Shown in pieces: positions 2,360 through 64,000 of a stretch of 64,000 bases of DNA (within the stretch, counting starts at the first letter, position 1; every line of letters begins with the position of its first letter). The notes beneath the pieces are model-generated. The model did not search any database. It was given only the letters and a program-made list of their open reading frames with translations, and was not told the DNA's origin. This DNA is from Candidatus Micrarchaeota archaeon (GTDB lineage: Archaea; Micrarchaeota; Micrarchaeia; Micrarchaeales; CABMGC01). The stretch is taken from assembly GCA_021801225.1 (NCBI GenBank), contig JAJYYF010000002.1:317-64316 (forward strand). Reading direction: 5' to 3'. The translations under genes were made by a program, and so were the position numbers.

Positions 2360-5300
2360 ATGATATCTTCTAAAAAAATATTGAAAGATAGTAAAAACAA
2401 AAATTCAAAACAGCAATCTGCAATAGAATATGTACTTAGTTATTCATGGGCAATTATAATACTAATTGCCATAATTCTTATTTACTTTTACTACTCAAAC
2501 AATCAAGTAACCTACTCATCTTCATATTGTTATATATCGACAGAGTTTCCCTGTTACCAAATTTTAATCAACTCTAACTCATTAGGAACCTCAGCGGTAG
2601 TTGTTTTTTCAAACAATGTAAATAAACCTTTATACTTTTCATCAACTTCATTTTCAATTAAATTTACTCCAAATTCACAATATTATTTAGGGAGTTGTCA
2701 ACCAACAACCGTTCTACAAGGAGAACGTGTTACATGTACCGTTCTTGATCCTAATCTTACACTTCCTATAAGTTCTGAGGTAACTCCAGAGTTCTACTTA
2801 ACATACTCTGAGTGTATATCACAAAATTGTAACTCAAACAACAAACAAGTAATATCCTTAACTACTTCAGGAAGCGGATTATCTTATGTTTATCAATATA
2901 ATTTATCTACTAATAGTATAAAAACAACTCCTATTAAATATACATTAAATACATACTCATCTCCAGTTAGTGGAGGAAGTACCTCACCTTTAACTGGTAA
3001 TTATAATAGTGGGCAATCAGTATCAATTTCAGAAAACCCTAATGCTGGTTACACATTTAATGATTGGACCTGTACAGGTACAGGTTGCTATTCTGGAACA
3101 TCTAGTAATCCTACTATAATTATGGATTCAAACATAATAGAAACGGCAAACTTCAATCAATTACAAAGTTATACCTTAACAACAAATGCAGTTCCGAGTG
3201 ACGGTGGAACAGTATCTCCTGCTTCAGGAAGTTATTACTCTGGATCACAGGTTACAATATCAGAAACACCTGCTTCTGGCTATGTATTTACTGGTTGGTC
3301 TTGTACTGGATCTAACTGTTATTCTGGAACTACTGACTCAGCAGTTATAACAATTGACTCTAATGTAGTAGAAACCGCAAATTTCCAACAATCAGTTGCT
3401 ACTTATACACTAGCAACAAATTCAGATCCAACTAATGGTGGAACAACAACTCCGGTAAGTGGCTCTTATCAAGCAGGTAATTCAATAACAATATCTGAAA
3501 CACCAGCTTCTGGTTATGTATTTAATGGTTGGACATGTACTGGCGCAGGATGTTATGCAGGAACATCTCCATCAAACACAATAATAATCAGTGCAAACAC
3601 TGTAGAAACAGCTAACTTTAAAAAGCAAACAGGTTTTTATTATCCAGTTCCAACTTATACCTATCCATCAAAGGATACTTATTTCTACAGCAATAATAAC
3701 GGTGGACAAACGATAGGGCTAGTAAGCGATATGTACCACAACAATGTGTTGAACAGTATAGGTAGCGCATACTATGAATCTAATCACAATTACATTACAG
3801 TTTCTAGAGACGGTTATGTTTATGACTTATCTAAGTTTTATAATGATGGAAATAGCAGTTTCACAGCTGCTCTAGTAATAATAAATACATCTACTGAATC
3901 AGTAGTTAAGGAAGCTTTAATAGCAAACTCAACTGCAAATACGACTATAATTCAAGGAGTAGCTTCTGGAGATGGCTATTCAATGCAGTTTAACTCATCA
4001 GGTTCACTTTACATCTTAATAGGAGGGACATCATCAGCTTTTAATACACCAGAAGGCCCATATTTAGTAATAATCAATAAAACTGATTTGCAAGATGCTA
4101 TGACATCCTCTAATTTATTCTACACTTACAATAAAATACAAGTTAAAAACTTAACTAATATTGTCGGATCATCGGCTTCAGATGCAGCATATAATCCTTA
4201 CTTCACAAGTTTCATAATGTTAGGTAATTATGCTTTTATTTCAAACTCAACTAATTTATATGTATTAAATACCACCAAAAATAACTCAATGGCAGCAAAT
4301 ATATTAATAAACAAATTCGGACCTTCAATAGGTTCTGCTTCTGGAATAATAAATATGGTAACAGATGGAAACTTTATGTACTTTGCAATGGTCAATGGAA
4401 CATCTTCATCTGAATACAACTCGTCAATAGCATCATTTAACACAACATCGTTAAAGATAAACTACACAAACGTAGCATTATCTTTAAGTAACTATACTGT
4501 TGGTGCAACATTAAGTAGTAATCTTACTGATCTTTATGTTGTACTATCAAACGAAACCGTATACACATTTCCAGTAAGTGGAAGTGGCGTTTCCAGTGTA
4601 AAGAGTGTTCAGAACTTCAGATCCACTGATCCCTACGTTAATTATCCCGATTCTATTCCATTAGCTACGGGCTCACAATATAACTTTGTTTCAAGTGCAA
4701 ATAGTACTGATTTATATGTAAGCACAACGGTAGGTTCTGGAAACTTTTATGAAATTTATAATCTTAAATCAGGTTCTCAAGATGGTGTTCTGGGCCTAGA
4801 AAATAACTTAAATACTCCTAAAACTTATGGAAATGCAGACATTGTATACGCACCACAAAATAACTACAATATATACACAACAGGCGCTCAGAAATCAGGA
4901 AATTATTATAATCCAGGTTCTACAAACTTTGGACAGGTTAGTATTATAAGCAGTGCATACTTAATAAACAAAGAAAATGTTACATTACCATCTACATTTT
5001 CTCCTACTGCATTACTTTATGATGGAAATAACTTAAGAATTGGAGGTTATAACTACACTGGCAATACTATAAATGATGGACAAGCGTTATTGACTACTGC
5101 TAATACTACACAAAATATTGTTAACTCAAATATTGTAGCGCCAGAAGCGCAAATTTCATACTTTTATAACTCTGGTTATCCAATGACTCCTGAAACAAGT
5201 ACGTATTATTTACCAATGGTGGCTGATTTTTCACAACCAAATGGAAATTTCTTCTCAATATACCCTTCAGGAAGTGTAAATTACGAGTTTTATGCTCAAA

Positions 5301-6442
5301 CTTTATCCCAAGTGTTTCCAACAAATGTTATTTTATCTGGTATGGCTGCAACAACTAGTAATTCTCAAGCTGCAAACTGCCCTTCAGGAGGTCCTTGCGC
5401 TGCAGGAAACTTATATCTAACCCCTTATCAAACAATAGATGCTTTTTCATCTATGTCCTCATCTTCTGGTTCTGTTTGTGCTGCTGAAGCAAATTATGGT
5501 TTTGCATCAACTTCTACTGTTTATATAAATGGAATGCTTGAAAAAAATAACGATATGACTGTATTATCTTATCAAACTCAACTTCAAGATGATTATAGTG
5601 ATGCTCCTGGTCCTGCTCCTGGAGGTATGGGCGCAACGGCAGCTCAAATAGTTTTCAATTATCCATTAAATGATACTATAGCTTCAACATACAATGCAAA
5701 TGGGAATAGTGATACTCAAACCGCCGCGGGCACTGGAGATGCCGGAGCTTTTAGTTGTTCTTCGCCACCTAGTCCAAATGAGTTTATAACTTATAGTTAT
5801 TGGACAGTAACTGATTCGGGATTATTATCTCAATCAACTAACTCAATTTTAACAAATCCTCCTGTAGTTCCAGTTAATAATACACCATATGTTTACATGT
5901 TAAGTCCAGAAAACGGAGAAGTTGCAATATACAATAAGAATACAAATGCTTTCAGTACGATATCACTTCCTCATTTTAATTTCTATGATACCATTTACAA
6001 CAACAAAAGAGATGCTATGACATCTACAACTAACGGAACATTTGTTTTTGTAGGTTATTCAACTCCATTTTCTAATTGCGCAATTGCAACGATAAATACA
6101 CAACTTCAAAAAATAGTTAAAATAAACTATGATTCAGGTGCCAATGGTGGTGGTTGTTTTACGGGCGGACCTGGAGAAATGATAGTATCTCCGGATGGTA
6201 AGTACTTATATTCTGGTATTGCTAGTGTTACTAATGGAGGTTCAGTATACAGTATTTATGATCTAATTACTTATAACTCTACATTTGAAAATGGACCTAG
6301 TGGCGAGTTTAATGTTTCCTTTGCTAATACGGGCACATTCACATTGCCTATCGGAACTGAATTTGGCTATGGTTCAAACGGATTAGGCGATATGACTTAT
6401 CAAAGAATTGCAATATCTACAAATGCGCAACCTTTACCGTGA
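2360..6442 (+). CDS. Giant (1360 aa) surface protein: class III signal peptide/pilin-like N-module, 3 InlB-B-type repeats, Asn/Ser/Thr-rich beta-rich C-terminal region
   Basis: N-terminus KQQSAIEYVLSYSWAIIILIAIILIYF (Q-x3-E plus hydrophobic helix, as in archaeal class III signal peptides). Three ~76-aa repeats. C-terminal SPDGKYLY and YVxN-like segments suggest propeller blades. Many N-x-S/T sequons. Confidence 0.75.
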   Translation: MISSKKILKDSKNKNSKQQSAIEYVLSYSWAIIILIAIILIYFYYSNNQVTYSSSYCYISTEFPCYQILINSNSLGTSAVVVFSNNVNKPLYFSSTSFSIKFTPNSQYYLGSCQPTTVLQGERVTCTVLDPNLTLPISSEVTPEFYLTYSECISQNCNSNNKQVISLTTSGSGLSYVYQYNLSTNSIKTTPIKYTLNTYSSPVSGGSTSPLTGNYNSGQSVSISENPNAGYTFNDWTCTGTGCYSGTSSNPTIIMDSNIIETANFNQLQSYTLTTNAVPSDGGTVSPASGSYYSGSQVTISETPASGYVFTGWSCTGSNCYSGTTDSAVITIDSNVVETANFQQSVATYTLATNSDPTNGGTTTPVSGSYQAGNSITISETPASGYVFNGWTCTGAGCYAGTSPSNTIIISANTVETANFKKQTGFYYPVPTYTYPSKDTYFYSNNNGGQTIGLVSDMYHNNVLNSIGSAYYESNHNYITVSRDGYVYDLSKFYNDGNSSFTAALVIINTSTESVVKEALIANSTANTTIIQGVASGDGYSMQFNSSGSLYILIGGTSSAFNTPEGPYLVIINKTDLQDAMTSSNLFYTYNKIQVKNLTNIVGSSASDAAYNPYFTSFIMLGNYAFISNSTNLYVLNTTKNNSMAANILINKFGPSIGSASGIINMVTDGNFMYFAMVNGTSSSEYNSSIASFNTTSLKINYTNVALSLSNYTVGATLSSNLTDLYVVLSNETVYTFPVSGSGVSSVKSVQNFRSTDPYVNYPDSIPLATGSQYNFVSSANSTDLYVSTTVGSGNFYEIYNLKSGSQDGVLGLENNLNTPKTYGNADIVYAPQNNYNIYTTGAQKSGNYYNPGSTNFGQVSIISSAYLINKENVTLPSTFSPTALLYDGNNLRIGGYNYTGNTINDGQALLTTANTTQNIVNSNIVAPEAQISYFYNSGYPMTPETSTYYLPMVADFSQPNGNFFSIYPSGSVNYEFYAQTLSQVFPTNVILSGMAATTSNSQAANCPSGGPCAAGNLYLTPYQTIDAFSSMSSSSGSVCAAEANYGFASTSTVYINGMLEKNNDMTVLSYQTQLQDDYSDAPGPAPGGMGATAAQIVFNYPLNDTIASTYNANGNSDTQTAAGTGDAGAFSCSSPPSPNEFITYSYWTVTDSGLLSQSTNSILTNPPVVPVNNTPYVYMLSPENGEVAIYNKNTNAFSTISLPHFNFYDTIYNNKRDAMTSTTNGTFVFVGYSTPFSNCAIATINTQLQKIVKINYDSGANGGGCFTGGPGEMIVSPDGKYLYSGIASVTNGGSVYSIYDLITYNSTFENGPSGEFNVSFANTGTFTLPIGTEFGYGSNGLGDMTYQRIAISTNAQPLP
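2939..3619 (+). repeat. Three tandem ~228-bp coding repeats (divergent InlB B-repeat-like domains)
   Basis: YTLNTYSSPVSGGSTSPLTGNYNSGQSVSISENPNAGYTFNDWTCTGTGCYSG..ETANF, YTLTTNAVPSDGGTVSPASGSYYSGSQVTISETPASGYVFTGWSCTGSNCYSG..ETANF and YTLATNSDPTNGGTTTPVSGSYQAGNSITISETPASGYVFNGWTCTGAGCYAG..ETANF. Confidence 0.8.
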
Positions 6443-28148: not shown

Positions 28149-30410
28149 CTAAGATGAGAAGGCTATGCCTTTAGGGCTATTAAATCCAGAGGTCCACGCA
28201 CCGATTACGTCGCCGTTTGAGGGATTGATTTCTACTACATTATTAGAGTAGTAATTAGTAACATATGCATTTCCGGAGTAGAAGGCTATGCTGTAAGGAT
28301 ACTCAATTCCAGAAGTCCACGTACCGATTACGTCGCCGTTTGAGGGATTGATTTCTACTACATTTGCCGAATTAACAACATACGCATTTCCAGAGTAGAA
28401 GGCTATGCTGTAAGGATACTCAATTCCAGAAGTCCACGTACCGATTACGTCGCCGTTTGAGGGATTGATTTCTACTACATTGTTAGAACCGGAATTAACA
28501 ACATATGCATTTCCGGAGTAAAAGGCTATGTCCGCAGGAGAACTGAATCCAGAAGTCCACGCACCGATTACGTCGCCGTTTGAGGGATTGATTTCTACTA
28601 CATTTGCTGAATTAGTAACATAAGCATTTCCGGAGTAAAAGGTTATACGTGTAGGGTCATTAAATCCAGAGTTCCACGTACCGATTACGTCGCCGTTTGA
28701 GGGATTGATTTCTATTACATTGCCAGAAAAACGATTAACAACATAAGCATTTTCTGAGTAGAATATTATGCCTTGAGGAGAATCAAATCCGGAAGTTATT
28801 GAGTCAAAAACATTTCCTGTATTTGCGTCTACAATACTTACATTATTATAATTACTAACATAAGCATAAGGGTCATTCGTTACAAGAATATTTACCGGAG
28901 TACTTGTTGCCTGATTGCCTTGATTGTCTGAAGTTTGTAAATTGAATTGGTATGTCCCAGTAGTTGCACTTGATGGAGGTGAAAATGTGAAGGTATTTGA
29001 GGTTGCACTAGATATTTGAGAGAATGATGAAGACCCAGGAGCTTCTTCATACCATTGAAAATTTGTTGCTCCACATGAAATAGATGTGAGAGTAGTACTC
29101 CTGAGACCACTTAGAAATATCTCAGAGTTAGGAGGTTGATTTATCGAAGCACATATGGGACTTGTTTGCAGATTGAAAGTATATACTTCGTAAGATACCA
29201 TGGCACTGTTTGGATAACCAAAAGCTAATATATTAAATGAGTAAGAGCCAGCAGATTGGTCATTGCAAACTATTCCTAAAACACTCTCTGCATAATCATT
29301 ATGTCCTGAAACAGAAAATTTATTAGAACATCCAGAAGGAAGATTATTTGTAATACTACAAGATCCGACGGATGAACCTTCCTCACCACATGCTACTAAA
29401 ATTACAACATAAGAAAGATGTGATAATGTATATGAGATTGAATATGAATCTCCACTTCCTTGACCTGATGATGAGGTAACTGTATAAGGAAGATTTGTTG
29501 TAACGCCTATTGCACCTATAACTACATTTGCACCAGCAATTGCAGATGCACTACAAGTTAAATCGGTCTGTTGACCAACATTTGTACTCGAGTATATGTC
29601 ATTTGTAGTTGTAGTCCAGGAAGGCGTAAGGCCTGCATTTTGACCTTGCGAGTTATATAAACCCACTGCACCTGCACAGAATATCATATTTCCAGAACTT
29701 ACTGTTGCTGAAGTAGAGGTTGTACCAAAATTAGAATTATAAGTAATTGTAGGTGATGTTGCAACACCACTTAAAGTTTCTCCCTGTGTACCGGAACTCC
29801 CTGAACCTGTGTTGCCAAGATTTATTGATGTAGATGTACCAACCTTTCCAGTGAAAACCCCTATATTAGTTTCTTGATTTGGAACTCCATGGTTTTGATA
29901 CTGAATCCATAATCTTCCTGAGAAATCTGAACCTATTGTATTTGAGGGTAATGTACATTTAAAACCAAGTGTTCCTGTAACACCATTAAAAAATGTTGGA
30001 TTATTGAGGGGTTGTTGTATCCATTGATTAGAATTTGGGGGTGCTGTTGAGTTCGTACATGCAGTAGCAGTTATTGTTATTTGTGAACCTAAGGACTGAC
30101 CAAAATTAATCAAAACATTACCACTTGTATCCATTACTGGATTACTACATAAGAAACCACTTTGTGCTACGCAAGAGGTAGGAATGCCTGAACCACTTCC
30201 ATTAAAAACACCTAACTCAAATAAAACAACAAGCGCAATCGCAATGATTAAAATTGACCACCCATATGTCATTAAGTACTCCATAGCGCTTTGAGCTTGA
30301 GAACTTTTATTCTTTGATAATGCTCCGAAAACTTTATTGTGATTAATTACCTTTTTCTGAGAAAAAGATTTTTTTAAAGGTTTCTTTGAAGTACTTGATA
30401 AATTTGACAT
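28149..30410 (-). CDS. Surface protein (753 aa): class III signal peptide/pilin-like N-module plus C-terminal six-blade YVTN-type beta-propeller
   Basis: N-terminus ..SQAQSAMEYLMTYGWSILIIAIALVVLFELGVF. Cys-paired head module; Ser/Thr/Gly-rich middle. C-terminal repeats AYV(V/T)NS..NVVEINPSNGDVIG(T/A)WTSGF..P..IAFYSGN x6. Confidence 0.8.
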   Translation of the reverse strand: MSNLSSTSKKPLKKSFSQKKVINHNKVFGALSKNKSSQAQSAMEYLMTYGWSILIIAIALVVLFELGVFNGSGSGIPTSCVAQSGFLCSNPVMDTSGNVLINFGQSLGSQITITATACTNSTAPPNSNQWIQQPLNNPTFFNGVTGTLGFKCTLPSNTIGSDFSGRLWIQYQNHGVPNQETNIGVFTGKVGTSTSINLGNTGSGSSGTQGETLSGVATSPTITYNSNFGTTSTSATVSSGNMIFCAGAVGLYNSQGQNAGLTPSWTTTTNDIYSSTNVGQQTDLTCSASAIAGANVVIGAIGVTTNLPYTVTSSSGQGSGDSYSISYTLSHLSYVVILVACGEEGSSVGSCSITNNLPSGCSNKFSVSGHNDYAESVLGIVCNDQSAGSYSFNILAFGYPNSAMVSYEVYTFNLQTSPICASINQPPNSEIFLSGLRSTTLTSISCGATNFQWYEEAPGSSSFSQISSATSNTFTFSPPSSATTGTYQFNLQTSDNQGNQATSTPVNILVTNDPYAYVSNYNNVSIVDANTGNVFDSITSGFDSPQGIIFYSENAYVVNRFSGNVIEINPSNGDVIGTWNSGFNDPTRITFYSGNAYVTNSANVVEINPSNGDVIGAWTSGFSSPADIAFYSGNAYVVNSGSNNVVEINPSNGDVIGTWTSGIEYPYSIAFYSGNAYVVNSANVVEINPSNGDVIGTWTSGIEYPYSIAFYSGNAYVTNYYSNNVVEINPSNGDVIGAWTSGFNSPKGIAFSS
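28152..28870 (-). repeat. Six tandem 117/123-bp coding repeats (propeller blades), five with an identical core
   Basis: CCGATTACGTCGCCGTTTGAGGGATTGATTTCTA(C/T)TACATT starts at 28201, 28324, 28441, 28564 and 28681 (spacing 123/117/123/117). Confidence 0.9.
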
Positions 30411-53136: not shown

Positions 53137-54537
53137 TTGAATAAGATGAAATTAAATTATAGAGGACAAAAAAAGATAAAACTGCAAAGTGTTATGGAGT
53201 ATTTAATAACGCATATGTGGGCTTTATTAATAATAGCAATAGCTTTGGCCGCTCTTTTTGAACTTGGAATTTTTACACCATCTCCACCACAGCAATGTAT
53301 ATTATCAGACGGATTAGTTTGTAAAAATTTTTTTATCAACTCACAAGGTTCATTGACCATTCAGGTATTTAATAGCGGTACAACTCCAATGAACATAACA
53401 GGAGTAGCTTGTTATCAGAATTCTTCAGATATAGTCTATCAAAAAGAAGGAAATATAAATGGACAGGTGGCTTTGTCTCCAGGAGGTACTGTTATATTAT
53501 ATACAAATTGCTATGGAAGTAACAATAACGTCTATACATCAAGTTATGGCTCTTTTTATGGAGGTGATTTATCCATAACATTTATAGATTCTAGAACAGG
53601 TATTTCAGGAGATAGTTATGGGAGTATATCTGTAATTACAAAAAACGGAGCTGTAAATAACCAAGCAGGTATTATGTATTCTGTTTCAGTTACTTTAACA
53701 AATACAGAGAGTTCACCAACGCCTAATAACTTTCAACAAGAAATAGTAATAAACCCATCAAGTTATGCGCAGTACGGACTAAACGCAAACTTAAGTAATT
53801 TAGAGTTTAGTACCAATCCATATGGAGGTGGTACGCCTATATATTCTTGGATTGCAAATGGTTCAAGTATTACCTCAACAAAATCAGTAATTTGGGTTAA
53901 TTTACCAAGTGTTATATCTGCAAATGGTGGTACAGAAACTATTTACATGAACTTCTTTTCCAATAACAATCCGATATTATCTGGTTATACAGGTTACGCA
54001 CCGCAACTTTACTGTTCAACCGGTTGTTTCCAGACTGCGTATGGAGAGTATGACAATGGTGGAGATGTTTTCCCTACATATAGTAATTTTAAAGGGACAA
54101 CGTTAAGCTCTATATTTTACTCACCGCAAAGTTGTTCTAGTGGTTTAAGTATAGACAATGGTTACACTATGAATACATTTTATTGTGGAAATTATCAATA
54201 TCAAGCGTTAGCACATTTAAATTTACCACAAGGATATGGTGGAATTCTTCTATCGAATGTTGAGTCCATTAGTGGACCAAGTGGTGGAAGTGGAGTTATC
54301 TGGTGTTGGTTATTAAATGGAGGTTGTCAAGCGGGTGGAGAGGTAACTCAGGACCCAGTTCAAATAATTTCAGAACCGCCAACATCTGGAGAATCACTTT
54401 ATACAATAGACTCACTTTCAGCAAACTCTATAACCGATTACAGAACATTTACACTGAGTTATTTAGGTATTGCAAGTTATCCACCAAGTGGTCAGATGCC
54501 TAATGTAAATTGTAATGTAGGCGTATGCAGCAATTAA
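53137..54537 (+). CDS. Surface protein: class III signal peptide/pilin-like N-module plus DUF2341-like domain
   Basis: KKIKLQSVMEYLITHMWALLIIAIALAALFELGIF. Cys-paired head module. Then QQEIVINPSSYAQYGLNANLSNLEFS..PIYSWIANGSS..SVIWVNLPSVISANGGTETIYMNFFSNNNP, the DUF2341-type pattern. Confidence 0.7.
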   Translation: MNKMKLNYRGQKKIKLQSVMEYLITHMWALLIIAIALAALFELGIFTPSPPQQCILSDGLVCKNFFINSQGSLTIQVFNSGTTPMNITGVACYQNSSDIVYQKEGNINGQVALSPGGTVILYTNCYGSNNNVYTSSYGSFYGGDLSITFIDSRTGISGDSYGSISVITKNGAVNNQAGIMYSVSVTLTNTESSPTPNNFQQEIVINPSSYAQYGLNANLSNLEFSTNPYGGGTPIYSWIANGSSITSTKSVIWVNLPSVISANGGTETIYMNFFSNNNPILSGYTGYAPQLYCSTGCFQTAYGEYDNGGDVFPTYSNFKGTTLSSIFYSPQSCSSGLSIDNGYTMNTFYCGNYQYQALAHLNLPQGYGGILLSNVESISGPSGGSGVIWCWLLNGGCQAGGEVTQDPVQIISEPPTSGESLYTIDSLSANSITDYRTFTLSYLGIASYPPSGQMPNVNCNVGVCSN

Positions 54538-54557
54538 TTATAGTTTTTTAAAAAAAA

Positions 54558-55904
54558 TTAAAAATCAGATATGCTTGATTGTTTCCCTAATTTTTTTTCT
54601 TCTGGTTTTCTAGAAAGAATATCAATTACACCAAAAATTCCATCGTAACCTGGTTTTATCTTAATGTTTCCAGAACGAATTGATTCGATTGCTTTTGAAA
54701 GTTCTGGATCTATTATTCTTATTTTTTCTATATCTGCTTTTATCAAGACATTAAACTCTGTACCAAATGTATTTAGTAGTTTTGAGTAACTGTCATAAAC
54801 TTTTTTTGTTGCTACTCCTTTTGAGTAAACATAAGATAAAACTTCTAACAAAGGAACTGCTTTTATATAACCAGGTGCTCCTTTTAGAATATAATCTTCA
54901 TCCCTATCTGCAAGCTCCTCGACTCTGTTTAAAACACCTAGAGTTAGTTTCTTTCTACATTTCGGACACAGATAATTAAATTTTTTAGCCTCTGTAGGAT
55001 TTAATGATATATTACAATTTCTATGTCCATCGTAATGATACTTGCCTTCTTCTGGAAAGAACTCAATTGTATAAGAGATTGATTTTGATTTTATGGAACT
55101 TATTAATTTGCTATATGATAACTCATCTTTTTTAAGATTTAGAACTACCGCTTCTCTTCCTAACTTTTGTGGAGAGTGTGCATCGCTTCCTGATAATAAA
55201 GCATATTTATCGTTTGAAGAGACCCGCCAGTTCATAGACGGATCACTGCTTAAACCTGTTTCTAGTGCATAGATATGTTTTGCTTGATCTTGATATGCAT
55301 CTTTTATTGAGTCGTAGCCAGATATTGAACCGAAAACACCGAACCATGGAGTCCAAGCATGAGCTGGAAATATGAATATATCTTTATTTATTGCCATTAA
55401 TTTTTCTACGAGTTCAGGAGTTGAGATATTAAGTAAAGGTCTGCCATCTAATGATAAATTCCCATATTTACTTAATTCAGAATTTATTTCTTCTACTATT
55501 TCAATACTTGGAGATAGTATACAGTTATGGACTTTTTTAATCCCTGGAGCTTTTGAAAAAATATTTTTTGAGTTTCCTTTTTCATCAAATACTGTGCATA
55601 CTTCAGTACCTAAAACAAATAATGTACCGTTACTTTGATTTTTAAGTGAGTATATCCCACCTTTTGTTTCAAGTAATTTTTCTTTTATATCTTTAAACCA
55701 TAAAGGATGAGTAAAATCTCCTGTACTGATTAAGTTGATTCCTTTTTCGATACAGGTTTGATTGATATTTTCAAATGTTAAGTTTTCACTGCATGCACCT
55801 GCATACTTAGAGTGTGTATGTAGATCAGTTATTATCTCAGTAACATTAGTAGAGGATTCAATGTCTTTTTCTTGCATTGATGTTTTTTGATTTGTCATTA
55901 TCAA
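54558..55904 (-). CDS. Endonuclease Q-like PHP-domain nuclease with zinc ribbon (COG1379)
   Basis: TDLHTHSKYAGACS, LISTGDFTHPLW, FPAHAWTPWFG, GSDAHSP PHP-type metal motifs, plus YLCPKCRKKLTLGVLNRVEELAD. Confidence 0.65.
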   Translation of the reverse strand: MIMTNQKTSMQEKDIESSTNVTEIITDLHTHSKYAGACSENLTFENINQTCIEKGINLISTGDFTHPLWFKDIKEKLLETKGGIYSLKNQSNGTLFVLGTEVCTVFDEKGNSKNIFSKAPGIKKVHNCILSPSIEIVEEINSELSKYGNLSLDGRPLLNISTPELVEKLMAINKDIFIFPAHAWTPWFGVFGSISGYDSIKDAYQDQAKHIYALETGLSSDPSMNWRVSSNDKYALLSGSDAHSPQKLGREAVVLNLKKDELSYSKLISSIKSKSISYTIEFFPEEGKYHYDGHRNCNISLNPTEAKKFNYLCPKCRKKLTLGVLNRVEELADRDEDYILKGAPGYIKAVPLLEVLSYVYSKGVATKKVYDSYSKLLNTFGTEFNVLIKADIEKIRIIDPELSKAIESIRSGNIKIKPGYDGIFGVIDILSRKPEEKKLGKQSSISDF

Positions 55905-55946
55905 ACACAGATTTACTTATTAAAATTTAAAGATTTGGACTGAAAA

Positions 55947-57245
55947 TTAAGGTACAAGACGCGTCCTGTCTCTAGGAAATAGAGCACACTCACGTATGTT
56001 GCTTGAGTTTGTAAGACGCATTACGAATCTTTCCAATCCTATCGACCAGCCAGCGTGTGGTGGTGCTCCGTTTTTAAAAGCATTAATATAAAACTCAAAA
56101 TTTTTAGGGTCATTTCCTCTTTTTAGCAGTGCTTTCTCAAGAAGCTCTGGAATGTGAATTCTTTGTGCACCGCTTGAAAGCTCTAAACCTTTATAAATGA
56201 AATCAAACGAATTAGATAAATCAGGATTCTTTTCATTAGGCATACTGTAAAAAGCTCTTATATCCGTAGGATACTCTTTAACTATTAGTAAATCTCCAAA
56301 TATTTTGCCAAGGGCTAACTCGTCTTCTTTTGAAAAATCGTTTCCATAATCAATTTTTACTCCGTTTTTATTTAACTCAGATATTGCTTTTTTATAAGTA
56401 ATTTCTTTTATTTTACTTTTAGATATCTCTACACCTAAAATTGAGAGTTCATTTGCATTTTCTTTCTTTACTGTATCTATTATTTTGCTTACTGTTTTTT
56501 TAAGCAATTTTATTACATCATTATGATCTGCAAATCCCATCTCTATATCCATTTGAGTTATCTCATTTAAATGAAATGTAGTATTGTGTTTTTCTGCTCT
56601 AAATACAGGGCTTATCATGAATACTTTATCAAAGCCTCCTATTACTGAAAGTTGTTTATAAAGCTGTGGCGACTGTGCTAAATATGCGTTTTCTTCAAAA
56701 TAATTTACCTTGAAAAGATCTGTACCGCCTTCGGTAGCTTCCTTCACTAATGAAGGAGTTCTTATCTCAATAAAACCCTCTTTTTCAATTGTTTTTCTAA
56801 ATGTTTTCAAAACTGTTGACTCTATTTTGAATATTGCTGTGCTTTGTAATCTTCTTAAATCAATATATCTATAATTTAATCGCACATCTAACTCTGCAGG
56901 AACCTTACCCGTTACCTCAAATGGTATTACACTTTGTAATGGATTAAGGTTATTTACTTCAATAGGTATTACTTCTATTCCTTTTTTAGATTGCTTATTT
57001 TCAACTACAGTGCCCGTGACTGATATGACGCTTTCCTTTGGAATTAACATTGATTTTATAACATCATCAGAAACAGAACCTTTTTTTGCAGTTATTTGTA
57101 TAATTCCTGTGTTATCTCTTAAGAGTAAAAAAACTATATTCCCTATATCTCTTACTTCGTGAACCCAGCCTGCAATTTTTACTTCTTTCCCAGAAAATGA
57201 GTTAGATAACTCTGAAACATAATTAGTTCTGTAAATATTAATCAA
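55947..57245 (-). CDS. aspS: Aspartyl-tRNA synthetase (archaeal type)
   Basis: N-terminal OB anticodon-binding domain (VKIAGWVHEVRDIGNIVFLLLRD), class II motif 2 FRAEKHNTTFHLNE, motif 3 GAPPHAGWSIGLERFVM. TTG start. Confidence 0.95.
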   Translation of the reverse strand: MINIYRTNYVSELSNSFSGKEVKIAGWVHEVRDIGNIVFLLLRDNTGIIQITAKKGSVSDDVIKSMLIPKESVISVTGTVVENKQSKKGIEVIPIEVNNLNPLQSVIPFEVTGKVPAELDVRLNYRYIDLRRLQSTAIFKIESTVLKTFRKTIEKEGFIEIRTPSLVKEATEGGTDLFKVNYFEENAYLAQSPQLYKQLSVIGGFDKVFMISPVFRAEKHNTTFHLNEITQMDIEMGFADHNDVIKLLKKTVSKIIDTVKKENANELSILGVEISKSKIKEITYKKAISELNKNGVKIDYGNDFSKEDELALGKIFGDLLIVKEYPTDIRAFYSMPNEKNPDLSNSFDFIYKGLELSSGAQRIHIPELLEKALLKRGNDPKNFEFYINAFKNGAPPHAGWSIGLERFVMRLTNSSNIRECALFPRDRTRLVP

Positions 57246-57323
57246 GTAAACACCAATATTATTTGAATAAGAAGATTTATAACAATTATTAAAAAAAGAA
57301 AAAGAAAAAGAAGAATATTAAAA

Positions 57324-57620
57324 TTACTTTGCAAGCATTATCTCTATAGAACTAACCTTCGATTTAGTACCGTCTTCATTTGAAAGTTCTTCTGATCCTA
57401 TTGCTATGCTAGATACCTTCACATCTGTTACAAATCGATTTCTTGCTATTTCGGCTACATCCACAGCTCTAGATATTGCGTTTCCTCTAGCTCTGACCTT
57501 TACATTTTTGGCACCGCTGTTGAACTGTGTTACCACAGCAAGAACGTAGTTCATTGCAGGTTTTTTACCTATTAGAACAATATTTTCGCCTGTCGTTGTT
57601 TCAATTTTTTCTTCTGCCAT
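57324..57620 (-). CDS. albA: Alba DNA/RNA-binding protein
   Basis: [51 protein letters not shown]. Confidence 0.9.
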
Positions 57621-57704
57621 GTTTTCACCATTGTATTTAGCGTAATTACCTTTAATTTTTTTAGTTATTAATATATTTAAACACGTAATTTATTTAAAGC
57701 TTTT

Positions 57705-59105
57705 TTATTAAGAGGATATTTGTACTTCTTTTGTGATATCCTCCAACGACTAAAAGTCGTTGGCTTCTAGAGTGGTTATGATTGGTCGTCATGAAATCAC
57801 TCGTGTAGTTCCTCCTTCTATGATTCTACTTGCATCCTCCTGTTGAGGTGTAGAGGTAAAATCTCCAGAGGCGTAACTTCCCCCTTGTCCAGAGGTAGAT
57901 TTGACAGTTTTGCTGTCAAAATTTGAACTCGTAGAGTTCAAAGCTCTATTGAGTATATTTATTGATGCATTTAAATCTCTGTCTTTTGACATTCCACATT
58001 TTTTACAGTTGAATGTCCTTTTAGACAAAGGCATATTTTGTATATTTCCACATTTACTACATGTTTTTGAGGTATCTTTAGGATTTACACCAACTACTAC
58101 GCAACCAGCACTTTCAGCCTTGTATTGCAGATAGTTTATGAAATTGCCCCAAGATTCTTCACCTATGCTTCTTGCAAGATTATGATTTTTCATCATATTT
58201 GCAATTTTCAGTTCCTCGTATGCAATGAATGAGTATGAATTTACAAGATTATATGATAATTTATGAAGCCAGTCTTCTTTTATACGTAGAATATGCTCAT
58301 ATTTTCTTGAAAAATTTAGAACTGCTTTTCTTCTATTATGAGAACCTTTCTTTTTTCTTGAAATTATTTTTTGAAGTTTTTTAAGTTTAATTCTGTCCTT
58401 CTTTGAAATGTGTTTATTTTGAAGAATTGAACTATCAGATAAAACAGCATATTGATCTATACCTAAATCCATGCCTACTTTAGATTTATCATTTGATACA
58501 AAAGGTTTATCCTCCTTTTCAACTGCGATGGTGACATACCATTCCTGCGACTTTGTTTTCTTTATTGTGCACGTCTTTACCTCTCTTCAATTTCTCTATG
58601 ATTCACAAAGTTTATTCTACCTACTTTCGAGAGCTCTACCTTTTTCTTCTCTATTTTAAAGCCATTAGTTTGAGGATATGTTAGAGAAGATACAAAATTT
58701 TTATATCTCGGAAATCCAACTTTTACTTTTTTTCCCTGTTTCTTTTCTTTGCATCTTCTAAAGAAATGCCTATACGCATCTGATACTCTTTTTGAAACAT
58801 TTTGTAGAACCTGTGAATGTAGTTCTGAAAATTCTGGTCTTTCCTTTTTAATCTGCGTAAGCCAAATATTCATTCTATATTCAGTTAGAGTTTTACCTGT
58901 TCCCATGTAGTAGGTTTTTGATTTTTCAAGAAGAAGATTATAGAGCTCTTTTGAAAGAAACATCTGTCTGTTCAGAGTTTCCTTCTGCTCTTTTGAAGGA
59001 TATGCACGATATTTATATGCAATTTTCATTTATCACGACCATATTTAATATATTGTTAATGTTTGTATATATTCGCTTTCATCCCACGATTAAAATCGTG
59101 GGTTT
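57705..59105 (-). mobile_element. IS200/IS605-family element, TnpB-only (IS1341-like), decayed
   Basis: Related subterminal hairpins at both ends: 59083-59102 (CCCACGATTAAAATCGTGGG) and 57743-57763 (CCAACGACTAAAAGTCGTTGG), plus a second hairpin at 57712-57743 (GAGGATAT..ATATCCTC). They enclose a split tnpB. No tnpA. Boundaries approximate. Confidence 0.75.
57789..59029 (-). pseudogene. tnpB: tnpB (RNA-guided nuclease family) interrupted by two frameshifts
   Basis: N-part 58577..59029 (MKIAYKYRAYPSKEQKETLNRQM..). The middle 35 codons are readable only in a third frame (EVKTCTIKKTKSQEWYVTIAVEKEDKP). C-part 57789..58472 has RuvC D (MDLGID), E (YEELKI), a zinc finger CSKCG..CKKCG and DRDLNASINI. 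Confidence 0.8.
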
Positions 59106-59110
59106 TCTCG

Positions 59111-59707
59111 CTATGATTTTATAAGAGGTTTTCTTGAAAAAACTAAGTATGCAGTATGCCATACTCCTTTTGTTGAGGGACGCATTCCTTCTTTTCTAAC
59201 TAGTATATCTCTAAGTATACACTCTACTATATATGGTTCCTCGAAACTCATCATAGATAATTTTTTACAGTACTTTATTACCTGTTCTGCATGAGGTATG
59301 TATGCAACAACAGTACCGCCTGGTTTTAATGATTTTTTAACAGTTTTAAGTGCTTTTTCAGAACTAGGAAGATCAAGAGTAAAAATATCTACATTTTTTT
59401 CAGAAATGTTTTTTGTTATATCGCCTATCTTTAAGGTTACATTTTTAAGATTTAGTAAGGAAATATTTTTTTCAGCTATTTTTGAGAACTCCTCTCTAAT
59501 ATCATAAGAATAGACATGTTTTGCAATTAAACCTAACGAGACTGTTAACCAACCACTTCCTGTCCCAGCATCGACGCAGATAGAGTCTTTATTTACTCCA
59601 GAATAGGCAATTATTATGCCTATATCCTTAGGAAGAATTACCTGTGGGCCTCTTTTTAATTTTTTATACATTGTGGGATAAATAAACATTTTTCTCATAA
59701 AAATCAA
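59111..59707 (-). CDS. trmI: tRNA (adenine-N1)-methyltransferase, TrmI/Gcd14-like
   Basis: RGPQVILPKDIGIIIAYSGV followed by SAM-binding VDAGTGSGWLTVSL and a class I MTase fold. Its stop lies 3 nt from the approximate IS boundary (59105) and 9 nt from the left-end hairpin (59083-59102). Confidence 0.7.
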   Translation of the reverse strand: MIFMRKMFIYPTMYKKLKRGPQVILPKDIGIIIAYSGVNKDSICVDAGTGSGWLTVSLGLIAKHVYSYDIREEFSKIAEKNISLLNLKNVTLKIGDITKNISEKNVDIFTLDLPSSEKALKTVKKSLKPGGTVVAYIPHAEQVIKYCKKLSMMSFEEPYIVECILRDILVRKEGMRPSTKGVWHTAYLVFSRKPLIKS

Positions 59708-59718
59708 TTGATTATCAA

Positions 59719-61191
59719 TTAGCTAATTAATCCTAAAATATCGACTGATGGCATCTGACCGTCAGGTGGATATACCCGTGTTCGAACCCAGTCCGCTGTT
59801 ACCGTAACGCCACTACCACTTTGACTGACAAGCCATATCTGTGCAGGTGAAGTAAGATATGTTGTGCCGCTTATTAAATTACTATAATCATACTCACTAC
59901 TTAACAAACCATTAGTTGGTATTATTAAACTCCAAACATGGTATTCGGAACTTGAAGGTTGTGTTGGGAAATCAAAACTATAGGGAGTATTAGGATATTG
60001 AGTTGAACCATAACCAGTTATTGCAGTTGCTGCGCCGGTTTCATATGATGGATCTATGGCAATACCTCCAAAGAAACAGCTTTCAGATACTGCACCCCTA
60101 GTTATTAAAGCATACATATCAATTACGTTTCCATCTCCAAAGCTTTGTGATGTTATAATGGAGTTATAAGGTCCTAATGATATTTGATTATCAACATTTA
60201 CATTATCACCCCCACAGTTGGTGTAATCCTGCCATTTATTAGCGTTAAGTGTAGTTCCTGCAAAGTTATCGTAAAAATTAAACACATCTCCACCATTATC
60301 ATACTGCGCGTAAGAGGTCTGGAAACAACCGCTTGAACAGTAAAGTTGCGGTGCGTAACCTGTATAACCAGATAACACGGGATTTTTGTTAGCAAAAAAG
60401 TTCATGTAGATAATCTGTGTTCCTCCGTTAGATGTTATTCCAGCTGGAAGCTTAAGCCAAATTACTGCTGATGTTGCAGTATTACTTGCGCCGCTTTCTA
60501 TCCACGAATATATTGGAGAACCGCTACCATACTCACCAGTAGTAAACTCTAGATTACTTAAGTTTGCGTTTAGTCCGTACTGCGCATAACTCGATGGGTT
60601 TATTACTATTTCTTGTTGAAAGCCTTGATAAACTGGTTGTGATGTCGTATCAATTAACTTAATTGCAACTGTATTAAGATTACTTGGATTCCCATTAGTT
60701 AAAATTTGTTGAGTAGTAGTTACAGGAAGTATTAATGATCCTACCGCAAGTTCAGTCAGATGAGTTATTGCATCTTTATAATATATTGCTATCGAACCAT
60801 GAAAGTATGAGCCTAAATTTCCAGAAAATTCGTTATTTTGTGAAGAGAAACATTGAACATAAAATGTAGTTGATGAACCAACAGGCATGAATACTTGATT
60901 AGATGGAGGGTTATAAGGAGCTTGACCAGCAAGAAGTGTTCCATTTTCATAACACGCTATCCCAGTTATGTTAACTGGGTGGCTAGTTTGTTGATTTAAT
61001 GTAAAGGCTAAAACTCCTTGACTATTAAGAGTATAACCAGAACAACTAAAACCAGCTTCTATGATACATTGAGTATCTGGTTTAGGCGTAAAAATTCCTA
61101 ACTCAAATAATGTAACTAAAGCTACAGCTATTATTAATATTGCCCAACCATAAGTGGTTAAGTACTCAAGTGCACTTTGGAGCTTTAACAT
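59719..61191 (-). CDS. Surface protein: class III signal peptide/pilin-like N-module plus DUF2341-like domain plus extra C-terminal beta-rich domain (inverted paralog of 53137..54537)
   Basis: MLKLQSALEYLTTYGWAILIIAVALVTLFELGIF. QQEIVINPSSYAQYGLNANLSNLEFT..PIYSWIESGAS..AVIWLKLPAGITSNGGTQIIYMNFFANKNP. TGYAPQLYCSSGCFQTSYAQYDNGGDVF. Confidence 0.7.
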   Translation of the reverse strand: MLKLQSALEYLTTYGWAILIIAVALVTLFELGIFTPKPDTQCIIEAGFSCSGYTLNSQGVLAFTLNQQTSHPVNITGIACYENGTLLAGQAPYNPPSNQVFMPVGSSTTFYVQCFSSQNNEFSGNLGSYFHGSIAIYYKDAITHLTELAVGSLILPVTTTQQILTNGNPSNLNTVAIKLIDTTSQPVYQGFQQEIVINPSSYAQYGLNANLSNLEFTTGEYGSGSPIYSWIESGASNTATSAVIWLKLPAGITSNGGTQIIYMNFFANKNPVLSGYTGYAPQLYCSSGCFQTSYAQYDNGGDVFNFYDNFAGTTLNANKWQDYTNCGGDNVNVDNQISLGPYNSIITSQSFGDGNVIDMYALITRGAVSESCFFGGIAIDPSYETGAATAITGYGSTQYPNTPYSFDFPTQPSSSEYHVWSLIIPTNGLLSSEYDYSNLISGTTYLTSPAQIWLVSQSGSGVTVTADWVRTRVYPPDGQMPSVDILGLIS

Positions 61192-61209: not shown

Positions 61210-61692
61210 TTATCTTATAAATCTTCCATTTTGAATTCCTAGACATGCTTCTTTGAATGATGATTTTTTGATGACAAGTGCCTTTATCTCGTCTATATAC
61301 TCGATATTATTTTTTCTTGCCATTCTTTCAATTTGATTTAATTTATTTGAATATGCATTGTAAGCCGTAATTGCAGCTGTTAAGGCATCTCTTTCATGTA
61401 AAGTAGATACATTATTATTTGATAAAAATGTATCCTTTTTTTCTACACTTATATCGTATTTAGGAGTAAACAAAACAGAGTCAAAAATAGCTGCCAACTT
61501 TGCAACAGTTTGATTAGCTCTTTTTTTATCAGTAGCTATTATAACTGGAGAGCCTAACTCTTTTATTTTGTCTACAAACCAACGTATGCCTACATATTTC
61601 ATAGTAATACTTCCGATTACACGGCCATTTAAATCAACACCGGCTATTGATGAGGCCTTACCTGTATCTATGCCAACTATTATATGACGCAT
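61210..61692 (-). CDS. DUF460/COG2433 RNase H-fold (RuvC/YqgF-like) putative nuclease, short form
   Basis: IIVGIDTGKASSIAGVDLNGRV..GSPVIIATDKKRANQTVAKLAAIFDSVLFTPKYDISVEKK..LHERDALTAAITAYNAY matches the DUF460 N-terminal domain pattern. Confidence 0.65.
   Translation of the reverse strand: MRHIIVGIDTGKASSIAGVDLNGRVIGSITMKYVGIRWFVDKIKELGSPVIIATDKKRANQTVAKLAAIFDSVLFTPKYDISVEKKDTFLSNNNVSTLHERDALTAAITAYNAYSNKLNQIERMARKNNIEYIDEIKALVIKKSSFKEACLGIQNGRFIR

Positions 61693-62885: not shown

Positions 62886-64000
<1,115 letters not shown>

Follow-up and report, generated by a model that had tools for sequence, protein, structure and literature searches.

What keeps short stretches of two anciently duplicated genes nearly identical, silent sites included, when the remainder of the same genes has drifted far apart? 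The question is raised by a 64,000-nucleotide stretch of the genome of a Candidatus Micrarchaeota archaeon (assembly GCA_021801225.1, contig JAJYYF010000002.1, positions 317 to 64,316), hereafter the window, in which two paralogous genes, A and B, lie in inverted orientation on either side of a block of other genes and encode what are probably pilin-like surface proteins (Table 1). Comparison with related strains and species indicates, as the very probable answer, segmental concerted evolution of A and B through interlocus gene conversion that recurs, runs in both directions and affects short tracts. The duplication is ancient, the concerted evolution is restricted to one segment, the positions of the tracts are specific to each lineage, and the strains differ in a conversion-like manner in both directions.

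An earlier note on this DNA had described A and B as only moderately similar overall and as sharing near-identical tracts, and both observations hold. A core of 342 nt, the DUF2341 region, aligns between the two genes without a gap at 81% identity, whereas the rest of both genes is about 50% identical. All tracts lie on a single diagonal, on which the position in A and the position in B sum to 114352. Direct comparison reproduced the tracts exactly, giving 73/75 identical positions for 53734-53808 against the reverse complement of 60544-60618, 58/59 for the second tract, and the same 20-nt third tract. In a shuffled window, the 78-nt pattern of the full first tract is expected 0.00 times at up to three mismatches. 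Near identity extends to synonymous sites, as the same note had stated: the proportion of synonymous differences (pS) is 0.125 in tract 1, against 0.645 between the tracts and 0.606 in the N-terminal domain, whose 187 codons are 50.5% identical at the nucleotide level. Among codons that specify the same amino acid in both genes, identical codons are clustered, with longest runs of 18, 24 and 27 codons at 0, 1 and 2 mismatches (permutation test, p = 0.011, 0.005 and 0.011, respectively). The tracts share G/C-ending codons (GCG, CAG, TAC, CTA, AAC, CCG), although the third-position GC of both genes is only ~15-30%, in a window of low GC content (~31%).

The age of the duplication can be read from the surrounding genes and from the N-terminal domains. 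The locus was recovered by exact-protein look-ups and one scan of GTDB genomes, both in strains of the window species (L001-L003 and L048-L051) and in four other species (L005/L040, L006+L008, L004 and L037-L039). A scan of metagenome contigs yielded just 7 loci, which lie outside the comparison. The gene order, as read in the window, L003, L040/L005, L006+L008, L004 and L037-39, is ArgRS-p357-(DUF460)-B-TrmI-Alba-AspRS-(HhH-GPD)-EndoQ-like-A(inverted)-LonC-HIT, and relative orientations are kept in all five Micrarchaeota species. In a codon alignment of 12 genes from six genomes, the N-terminal domains of A and B are about 50% identical in nucleotides in every genome, and those of orthologs 55-82%. 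A neighbour-joining tree of this domain separates A from B with 100% bootstrap support and yields congruent subtrees on the two sides. Given this split and the shared synteny, A and B were already separate genes before at least five Micrarchaeota species diverged.

The core records a different history. Within the six genomes, the A and B cores are 80.7, 78.4, 73.1, 77.2, 81.6 and 89.8% identical, compared with 60-79% between orthologs. The neighbour-joining tree of the core pairs A with B by genome (100% for L004, 100% for L037 and 82% for the DRTY genome), and the split between A and B appears in 0% of replicates. The core follows the genome and not the paralog type. Paralogs of the same genome also share lineage-specific amino-acid states, such as INPSAFAQYGLNQNMSNLIF in both L004 genes and NIFSNNDPVLLGY in both DRTY genes. 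The L004 pair has a 138-nt stretch with a single mismatch, and this stretch differs from the window tract at many silent and several replacement positions. Sliding profiles of synonymous divergence (dS) place the troughs at alignment columns 231-251 and 311-331 in the window, 296-341 in DRTY, 236-286 and 321-346 in L004, and 251-346 in L037; these differing positions indicate independent events with different end points. Permutation of silent runs is significant in DRTY, L004 and L037 (p <=0.003 for 1- and 2-mismatch runs). The L040 pair, by comparison, shows no dS trough and no significant result in the same permutation, and its pS over the tract-1 region is 0.66 despite a pN (its non-synonymous counterpart) of 0.11.

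In the most strongly homogenised pair, that of L037, third-position GC in the converted tract rises to 0.47-0.50, against 0.21-0.22 in the N-terminal domains (Fisher p < 1e-4). Together with the likeness of this region to a distant paralog, considered below, this could stem from conversion biased towards GC or from a foreign donor. No general case is made for GC-biased conversion, as third-position GC rises in L037 but not in DRTY.

Differences among strains of the window species point in the same direction, with less weight than the cross-species pattern. The window and L003 are 98.2% identical over ~19 kb, and strain divergence in the core is 2.9% (A) and 3.8% (B), above the locus average of 1.8%. 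These core differences are clustered, and one of the two alleles is typically identical to the state of the paralog. Codons 305-307 of A, within tract 3, read GGT GGA GAT, as in B, in 5/6 alleles including that of the window, whereas L003 has GGA GTA AAT, the state of the DRTY A gene at these three sites; judged from the alleles, this is apparently a B-to-A micro-conversion for which L003 retains the ancestral state. In the other direction, codons 284-287 of B, within tract 2, carry the A state in the window and TAT GCT CCA GAA in L003 and L051. Tract 2 in L003 has five more mismatches than in the window, so that part of the identity seen in the window is very recent. Codons 297-298 of A equal those of B in L048 and L051. 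At three positions (205.3, 233.3 and 292.2) the same two alleles segregate in both paralogs, and at 205.3 and 292.2 they are swapped between strains, A of the window matching B of L003 and A of L003 matching B of the window. A coincidence test on third codon positions gave 3 shared polymorphisms against ~1.1 expected, which is not significant alone, and shared polymorphism is therefore used as supporting evidence only. The putative conversions add amino-acid polymorphism (I/L, S/T, A/S and GVN/GGD). Taken together, the alleles argue for conversion that is ongoing, bidirectional and short in tract.

The earlier note had proposed gene conversion between the paralogs, and this proposal is well borne out: the core groups by genome and the N-terminal domain by paralog type, troughs differ in position, and strain changes match the paralog. 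What the note had listed as counter-evidence did not materialise: dS varies along the genes, the assembled strains include mosaic alleles, and distant orthologs lack the tracts.

Several observations weigh against this reading. Restricted to the core, the run test for the window pair is borderline (p 0.04-0.11), and pairing in the core tree is only moderate for the window with L003 (48%) and for L040 (54%). The DRTY genes lie on different contigs of one bin. All sequences come from metagenome assemblies, in which strain haplotypes may be consensus mixtures, weakening single swapped polymorphisms; the strain evidence consists of assembled alleles, and no conversion event was directly seen. Further, the partner copy does not account for everything. 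In the L051 allele (L051:10001-11392), codons 228-233 of A carry five substitutions within 16 nt (GGA GGT ACA CAG ATA TAC) that do not match B, so donors other than the partner, whether third paralogs or other strains, contribute to some changes, and a distant paralog, L012 (L012:9763-9891), is 92% identical to the L037 A gene over 129 nt, making it a possible other donor. The co-occurring L040 species was rejected as the source of the L051 cluster, as only 2/5 sites match.

Gene conversion would operate at this locus as follows. Constraint on the protein would keep the DUF2341 core alike in A and B, and the core would consequently remain a substrate for homologous recombination. Short non-crossover events, spanning tens to ~140 nt, would repeatedly copy core segments from A to B and from B to A. 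Each event would refresh a near-identical tract, which would then decay, leaving segments saturated with silent differences interspersed with mini-tracts that are nearly identical even at silent sites. The N- and C-terminal domains, at about 50% nucleotide identity, would be too diverged to join in, which would confine conversion to the core. We infer that general RadA-type homologous recombination is responsible, resolved without crossover and without dedicated machinery. The locus has no Rfam match, no guanine-quadruplex (G4) motif and no recombinase; a scan of 52.5-62 kb against Rfam returned one sub-threshold chance match only, inside an insertion sequence (IS) element. The process is a well-known one, here in a new gene family, and no report of gene conversion in Micrarchaeota surface or pilin-like genes was found in the literature searched.

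The tracts are inverted, and the earlier note had accordingly suggested that they could mediate inversion of the 5-kb block between them, a switch that would swap the 3′ halves, and with them the C-terminal domains, of A and B. The repeats are in frame, and a crossover would yield intact chimeric genes; the swapped states at codons 205.3 and 292.2 could be produced by two successive inversions with different crossover points; and the A-type gene of L037 bears a C-terminal module otherwise found on B-type genes. However, the two swapped positions have unswapped sites between them, the tracts measure no more than 59-78 nt, and the block has the same orientation relative to its ArgRS and LonC flanks on every spanning contig in all five species (L003, L048, L049/L050 and L051 of the window species; L005/L040, L006+L008, L004 and L037-39). 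No chimera of an A-type N-terminus and a B-type C-terminus with an inverted block was seen: in L037 the block is not inverted and the B gene has no A-type C-terminus, so that the swap there was not a reciprocal inversion. Nor is an invertase or a tyrosine or serine recombinase adjacent, Pfam scans of the neighbours giving only a split IS605 TnpB and DUF460. We therefore regard an inversion switch as very unlikely. Somewhat less improbable, though still unlikely, is a dedicated system of pilin or adhesin variation resembling Neisseria pilE/pilS, in which some factor, possibly the DUF460 nuclease, would promote conversion for the sake of surface diversity. The pilin-like nature of the proteins, the conserved mini-tracts beside divergent segments, the amino-acid polymorphism added in the population, the raised divergence of the core between strains and the presence of a DUF460 gene beside the locus in four of five species all fit such a system. 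Its predicted hallmarks are nevertheless missing. Both copies are full-length open reading frames (ORFs), each having a start codon and a leader, and no promoterless cassettes are present. What is exchanged is the conserved domain, whereas in every species A and B each keep their own variable domains at the N- and C-termini. There is no G4 initiator, no (G3+N1-7)x4 motif occurring in 52-62 kb, and the implied rate is an evolutionary one, of a few events per ~2-3% of strain divergence. The analogy to bacterial pilin variation drawn in the earlier note is thus superficial only. A link to DUF460 is likewise unsupported: L004 has no DUF460 gene upstream of B, yet its pair converts strongly, as the 138-nt tract attests. 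The DUF460 gene is dispensable at this position, and is regarded here as a neighbour only.

Two further explanations dispense with recombination between A and B. The nucleotide sequence of the tracts might itself be functional, as an embedded RNA, a binding site or a target of codon-level selection, and the tracts do fall on the protein motifs of highest conservation (FQQ..INPS..Y..YG.N.N.SN..F and GYTGYAPQL.C..GC.QT.Y). Yet orthologs use different codons for the same motifs, trough positions differ per species and there is no Rfam match. The saturated silent sites of L040 over these very motifs exclude selection on a nucleotide motif, leaving this explanation with extremely little in its favour. 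Least credible of all, and in our judgement negligible, is the idea that assembly produced the pattern or that a recent duplication diverged unevenly. Several contigs of metagenome-assembled genomes (MAGs) break inside the core, so assemblers do have trouble with the repeat, but typical reads are longer than the tracts (<=140 nt). Independent assemblies from different assemblers (k141 and NODE contigs) show the pattern again, and three data sets contain an identical B. Recent duplication is excluded by the N-terminal divergence and the five-species synteny. Recurrent gene conversion between A and B is consequently the explanation that we carry forward.

Table 1. Features of the A/B locus. Positions are those of the window unless a locus label precedes them; rc, reverse complement.
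Feature	Position	Strand	Remarks	Basis
Paralog A	53146..54537	+	463 aa from ATG 53146; alternative start TTG 53137	ORF list
Paralog B	59719..61191	-	490 aa	ORF list
Core of A (FQQ...DNGGDVF, DUF2341 region)	53731..54072	+	segment under concerted evolution	segment trees
Core of B	60280..60621	-	partner of 53731-54072	
Tract 1 in A	53731..53808	+	76/78 identical to rc(60544-60621)	
Tract 1 in B	60544..60621	-		
Tract 2 in A	53977..54035	+	58/59 identical to rc(60317-60375)	
Tract 2 in B	60317..60375	-		
Tract 3 in A	54049..54068	+	TATGA[CT]AATGGTGGAGATGT, 20 nt	
Tract 3 in B	60284..60303	-	TATGA[CT]AATGGTGGAGATGT	
Leader and hydrophobic-helix coding region of A	53177..53279	+	72% identical to 61085-61187	
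Leader and hydrophobic-helix coding region of B	61085..61187	-		
3′ motif YPPxGQMP in A	54478..54500	+	closes variable C-terminal module; 83% complementary to 59750-59772	
3′ motif YPPxGQMP in B	59750..59772	-		
Intervening block	54558..59707	-	PHP/EndoQ-like gene, AspRS, Alba, IS605/TnpB insertion, TrmI/GCD14-like methyltransferase	
IS200/IS605-type insertion	57733-59116		1384 bp, between Alba and TrmI-like gene; strain-specific	
DUF460 gene upstream of B	61210..61692	-	Pfam E = 6.7e-29	
Converted tract in the L037 pair	L037:10586-10927 and L037:16456-16797		most strongly homogenised pair	

The encoded proteins share a common plan. Over their first ~316 residues A and B are 52% identical (E = 6e-110), whereas their C-terminal thirds have no significant similarity except for a short shared tail motif. 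Each starts with a class-III (type IV pilin-like) leader and helix, continues through a β-sandwich into the DUF2341 core, and closes with a C-terminal domain that varies. In A, the core is set between an A-type β-sandwich and an A-type C-terminal domain; in B, it joins a B-type N-terminal domain to a ConA/GH16-like C-terminal domain. DUF2341 (PF10102) is detected in B at 33.2 bits, above the Pfam gathering cutoff of 23.4, and weakly in A (19.5 bits, below that cutoff), whose core nonetheless aligns with that of B as described above. The leaders (K-L-QSALEYLTTYGWAILIIAVALVTLF in B and KIKLQSVMEYLITHMWALLIIAIAL in A) are short and basic, followed by QS(A/V)(L/M)EYL and a hydrophobic segment of ~22 residues, with Q at +1 and E at +5, which matches class-III/type IV pilin-like signals. 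Across 60 homologs Q5, S6 and E9 are invariant or nearly so. Position -1 is L, Q or A, compared with the usual G or A. The likeness of A and B in the leader and helix region reflects protein-level conservation only, as silent sites there are saturated. The N-terminal 70-78 residues have no Pfam match even at E <= 10 and no NCBIfam match, and no class-III or pilin model was hit. An AlphaFold2 model of B (pLDDT confidence 83.6) contains a helix at residues 7-30 and β-domains at 41-159, 171-~310 (DUF2341) and 320-485. Foldseek matches the C-terminal β-jelly-roll of this model to GH16/ConA-like lectin-glucanase folds of ~210-300 residues; a profile search of PDB sequences returned no match, so this domain is placed by fold comparison only.

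From these features we conclude that A and B are probably modular type IV pilin-like surface proteins of the minor-pilin or tip-adhesin type, an adhesin role being what the architecture suggests. For archaeal type IV pilus (T4P) loci of the Methanococcus type, a role as pilus tip adhesins has been proposed for DUF2341 proteins that carry class-III signals (Makarova 2016, PMC4858521), and LamG-type proteins are reported to be expanded in Micrarchaeota Mia14, where some are tied to T4P loci (PMC5498576). Neither the immediate neighbours of A and B nor the 10 largest other ORFs of the window yielded a T4P assembly gene. Orthologs of A are present in 5 species; exact protein look-ups of A from three candidate starts gave no match, and A apparently corresponds to protein P0122, found by cluster listing and compared by eye. 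A gene identical to B occurs in L001 and L002.

Other genes of the window bear on the leader. A third class-III-type leader (QSAMEYLMTYGWSILIIAIALV) begins the gene at 28149-30410 (-), which encodes 753 aa with PKD, Big_13 and PQQ-like matches and without DUF2341; its 5′ end is 75% identical in nucleotides to that of B over 97 nt. The gene at 2360-6442 (+) encodes a probable surface protein of 1360 aa with three Flg_new_2 (InlB B-repeat-like) stretches, and the A/B leader has a weak tblastn match inside it, at 2372-2449.

Pfam scans confirmed the genes that had been named between the two copies, as well as the DUF460 neighbour. Within the block, the IS200/IS605-type insertion is not present in strains L003, L048 and L051. 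It carries subterminal hairpins (CCAACGACTAAAAGTCGTTGG and CCCACGATTAAAATCGTGGG), and its TnpB is split into two ORFs, at 58577-59029 (HTH) and 57789-58472 (OrfB_IS605 and TNB). An HhH-GPD DNA glycosylase gene stands between the AspRS and EndoQ-like genes in L004 (13924-14568), L037 (12800-13507) and L040 (12684-13340), and is missing in the window species, where the corresponding site is 55904-55947. The DUF460 gene adjoins B in each species other than L004. Beyond B, the arginyl-tRNA synthetase gene (62886-63884, -) encodes 11 successive asparagines (KINNNNNNNNNNNLLND).

Mosaicism is not confined to A and B. Among B orthologs, N-terminal domains that are 72-85% identical are joined to C-terminal domains without detectable similarity. 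P0001 and P0002, 85% identical in the N-terminal domain, likewise have no detectable similarity in the C-terminal one. The reverse combination also occurs: in the pairs P0015/P0023 and P0002/P0029 the C-terminal domains are ~70% identical and the N-terminal domains only 33-39% (33% in P0015/P0023), and P0036 and P0052, with unrelated N-terminal domains, have one and the same sequence from slightly ahead of the core through to the C-terminus. The C-terminal module of the L037 A gene is 49% identical to that of the L040 B gene, and is also found on P0008. Mosaic breakpoints fall at the edges of the core. Further, the DUF2341 core of family members is where many MAG contigs stop (L005:16458, a contig end, and L014, L018, L025, L031, L032 and L033), which fits a multi-copy near-repeat that breaks short-read assembly. 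These patterns suggest that the conserved core is a junction where modules reassort. We speculate that the DUF2341 core and the YPPxGxMP tail may serve as a family-wide recombination junction, reassorting N-terminal β-sandwich and C-terminal lectin-like modules among pilin-like adhesin genes, and that the A/B tracts could be the trace of ongoing shuffling that tunes host attachment. This wider proposal is tentative, and to our minds somewhat more likely wrong than right.

Concerted evolution of prokaryotic paralogs, including partial and long-lasting cases and those of archaea, has already been documented (PMC6053082, PMC4632066), and a pilin-like case from Micrarchaeota adds to it. Across several species and at the level of sequence, the locus demonstrates active homologous recombination in genome-reduced DPANN archaea. 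This recombination acts between dispersed repeats that are inverted and only tens of nucleotides long, and it shapes surface proteins. It also carries a practical warning, since the middle domain tracks neither species nor paralog history and breaks MAG assemblies. The module-shuffling extension appears to be of more interest than conversion between A and B, but is unproven; if true, it would pinpoint the gene family and the junction sequences most likely to govern host recognition by these episymbionts.

Among known systems, the architecture of A and B recalls the modular type IV pilin PilB of S. sanguinis, which carries a globular module (PMC8179133). Like PilB, the archaeal DUF2341 proteins and the LamG proteins of Mia14, A and B combine a pilin-like N-terminus with globular domains, here DUF2341 and a ConA/LamG-type lectin-like fold, and their family, like the LamG proteins of Mia14, is expanded in Micrarchaeota. 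Unlike the DUF2341 proteins of T4P loci, they have no T4P assembly genes beside them or among the window ORFs checked, and their function is a predicted one. With shufflons (Rci), the Gin/Cin/Hin inversion systems of phage tail fibres and phase-variable type I hsdS loci, the locus shares inverted repeats within paralogous ORFs, across which a crossover would swap the C-terminal specificity domains. Shufflons, Gin/Cin/Hin and type I hsdS systems have an adjacent site-specific recombinase, and both of their orientations coexist; A and B, in contrast, have no recombinase, show a single orientation in the contigs of five species and are separated by housekeeping genes.

With Neisseria pilE/pilS the locus has in common a pilin-type gene, non-reciprocal transfer between paralogs, and short conserved tracts bordering divergent segments. 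In Neisseria, the pilS copies are promoterless and truncated, and transfer moves variable segments at high frequency and depends on a G4 element with a small RNA; none of these features was found at A and B. Closer parallels are housekeeping genes. Salmonella tufA and tufB form an inverted pair under interlocus gene conversion. Concerted evolution of archaeal paralogs is known from the duplicated mtrA genes of methanogens (PMC4632066), and long-lasting cases of prokaryotic gene conversion have been catalogued (Wang & Chen 2018, PMC6053082). A and B differ from all of these in being surface, pilin-like proteins of DPANN archaea and not interchangeable housekeeping ones, and in being homogenised in the middle domain only, through very short tracts flanked by strongly divergent termini. 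What they share with these cases is ancient paralogs containing a segment that is closer within a genome than between orthologs, homogenisation that recurs over long times, its attribution to general homologous recombination and, with tufA/tufB, the inverted orientation of the pair.

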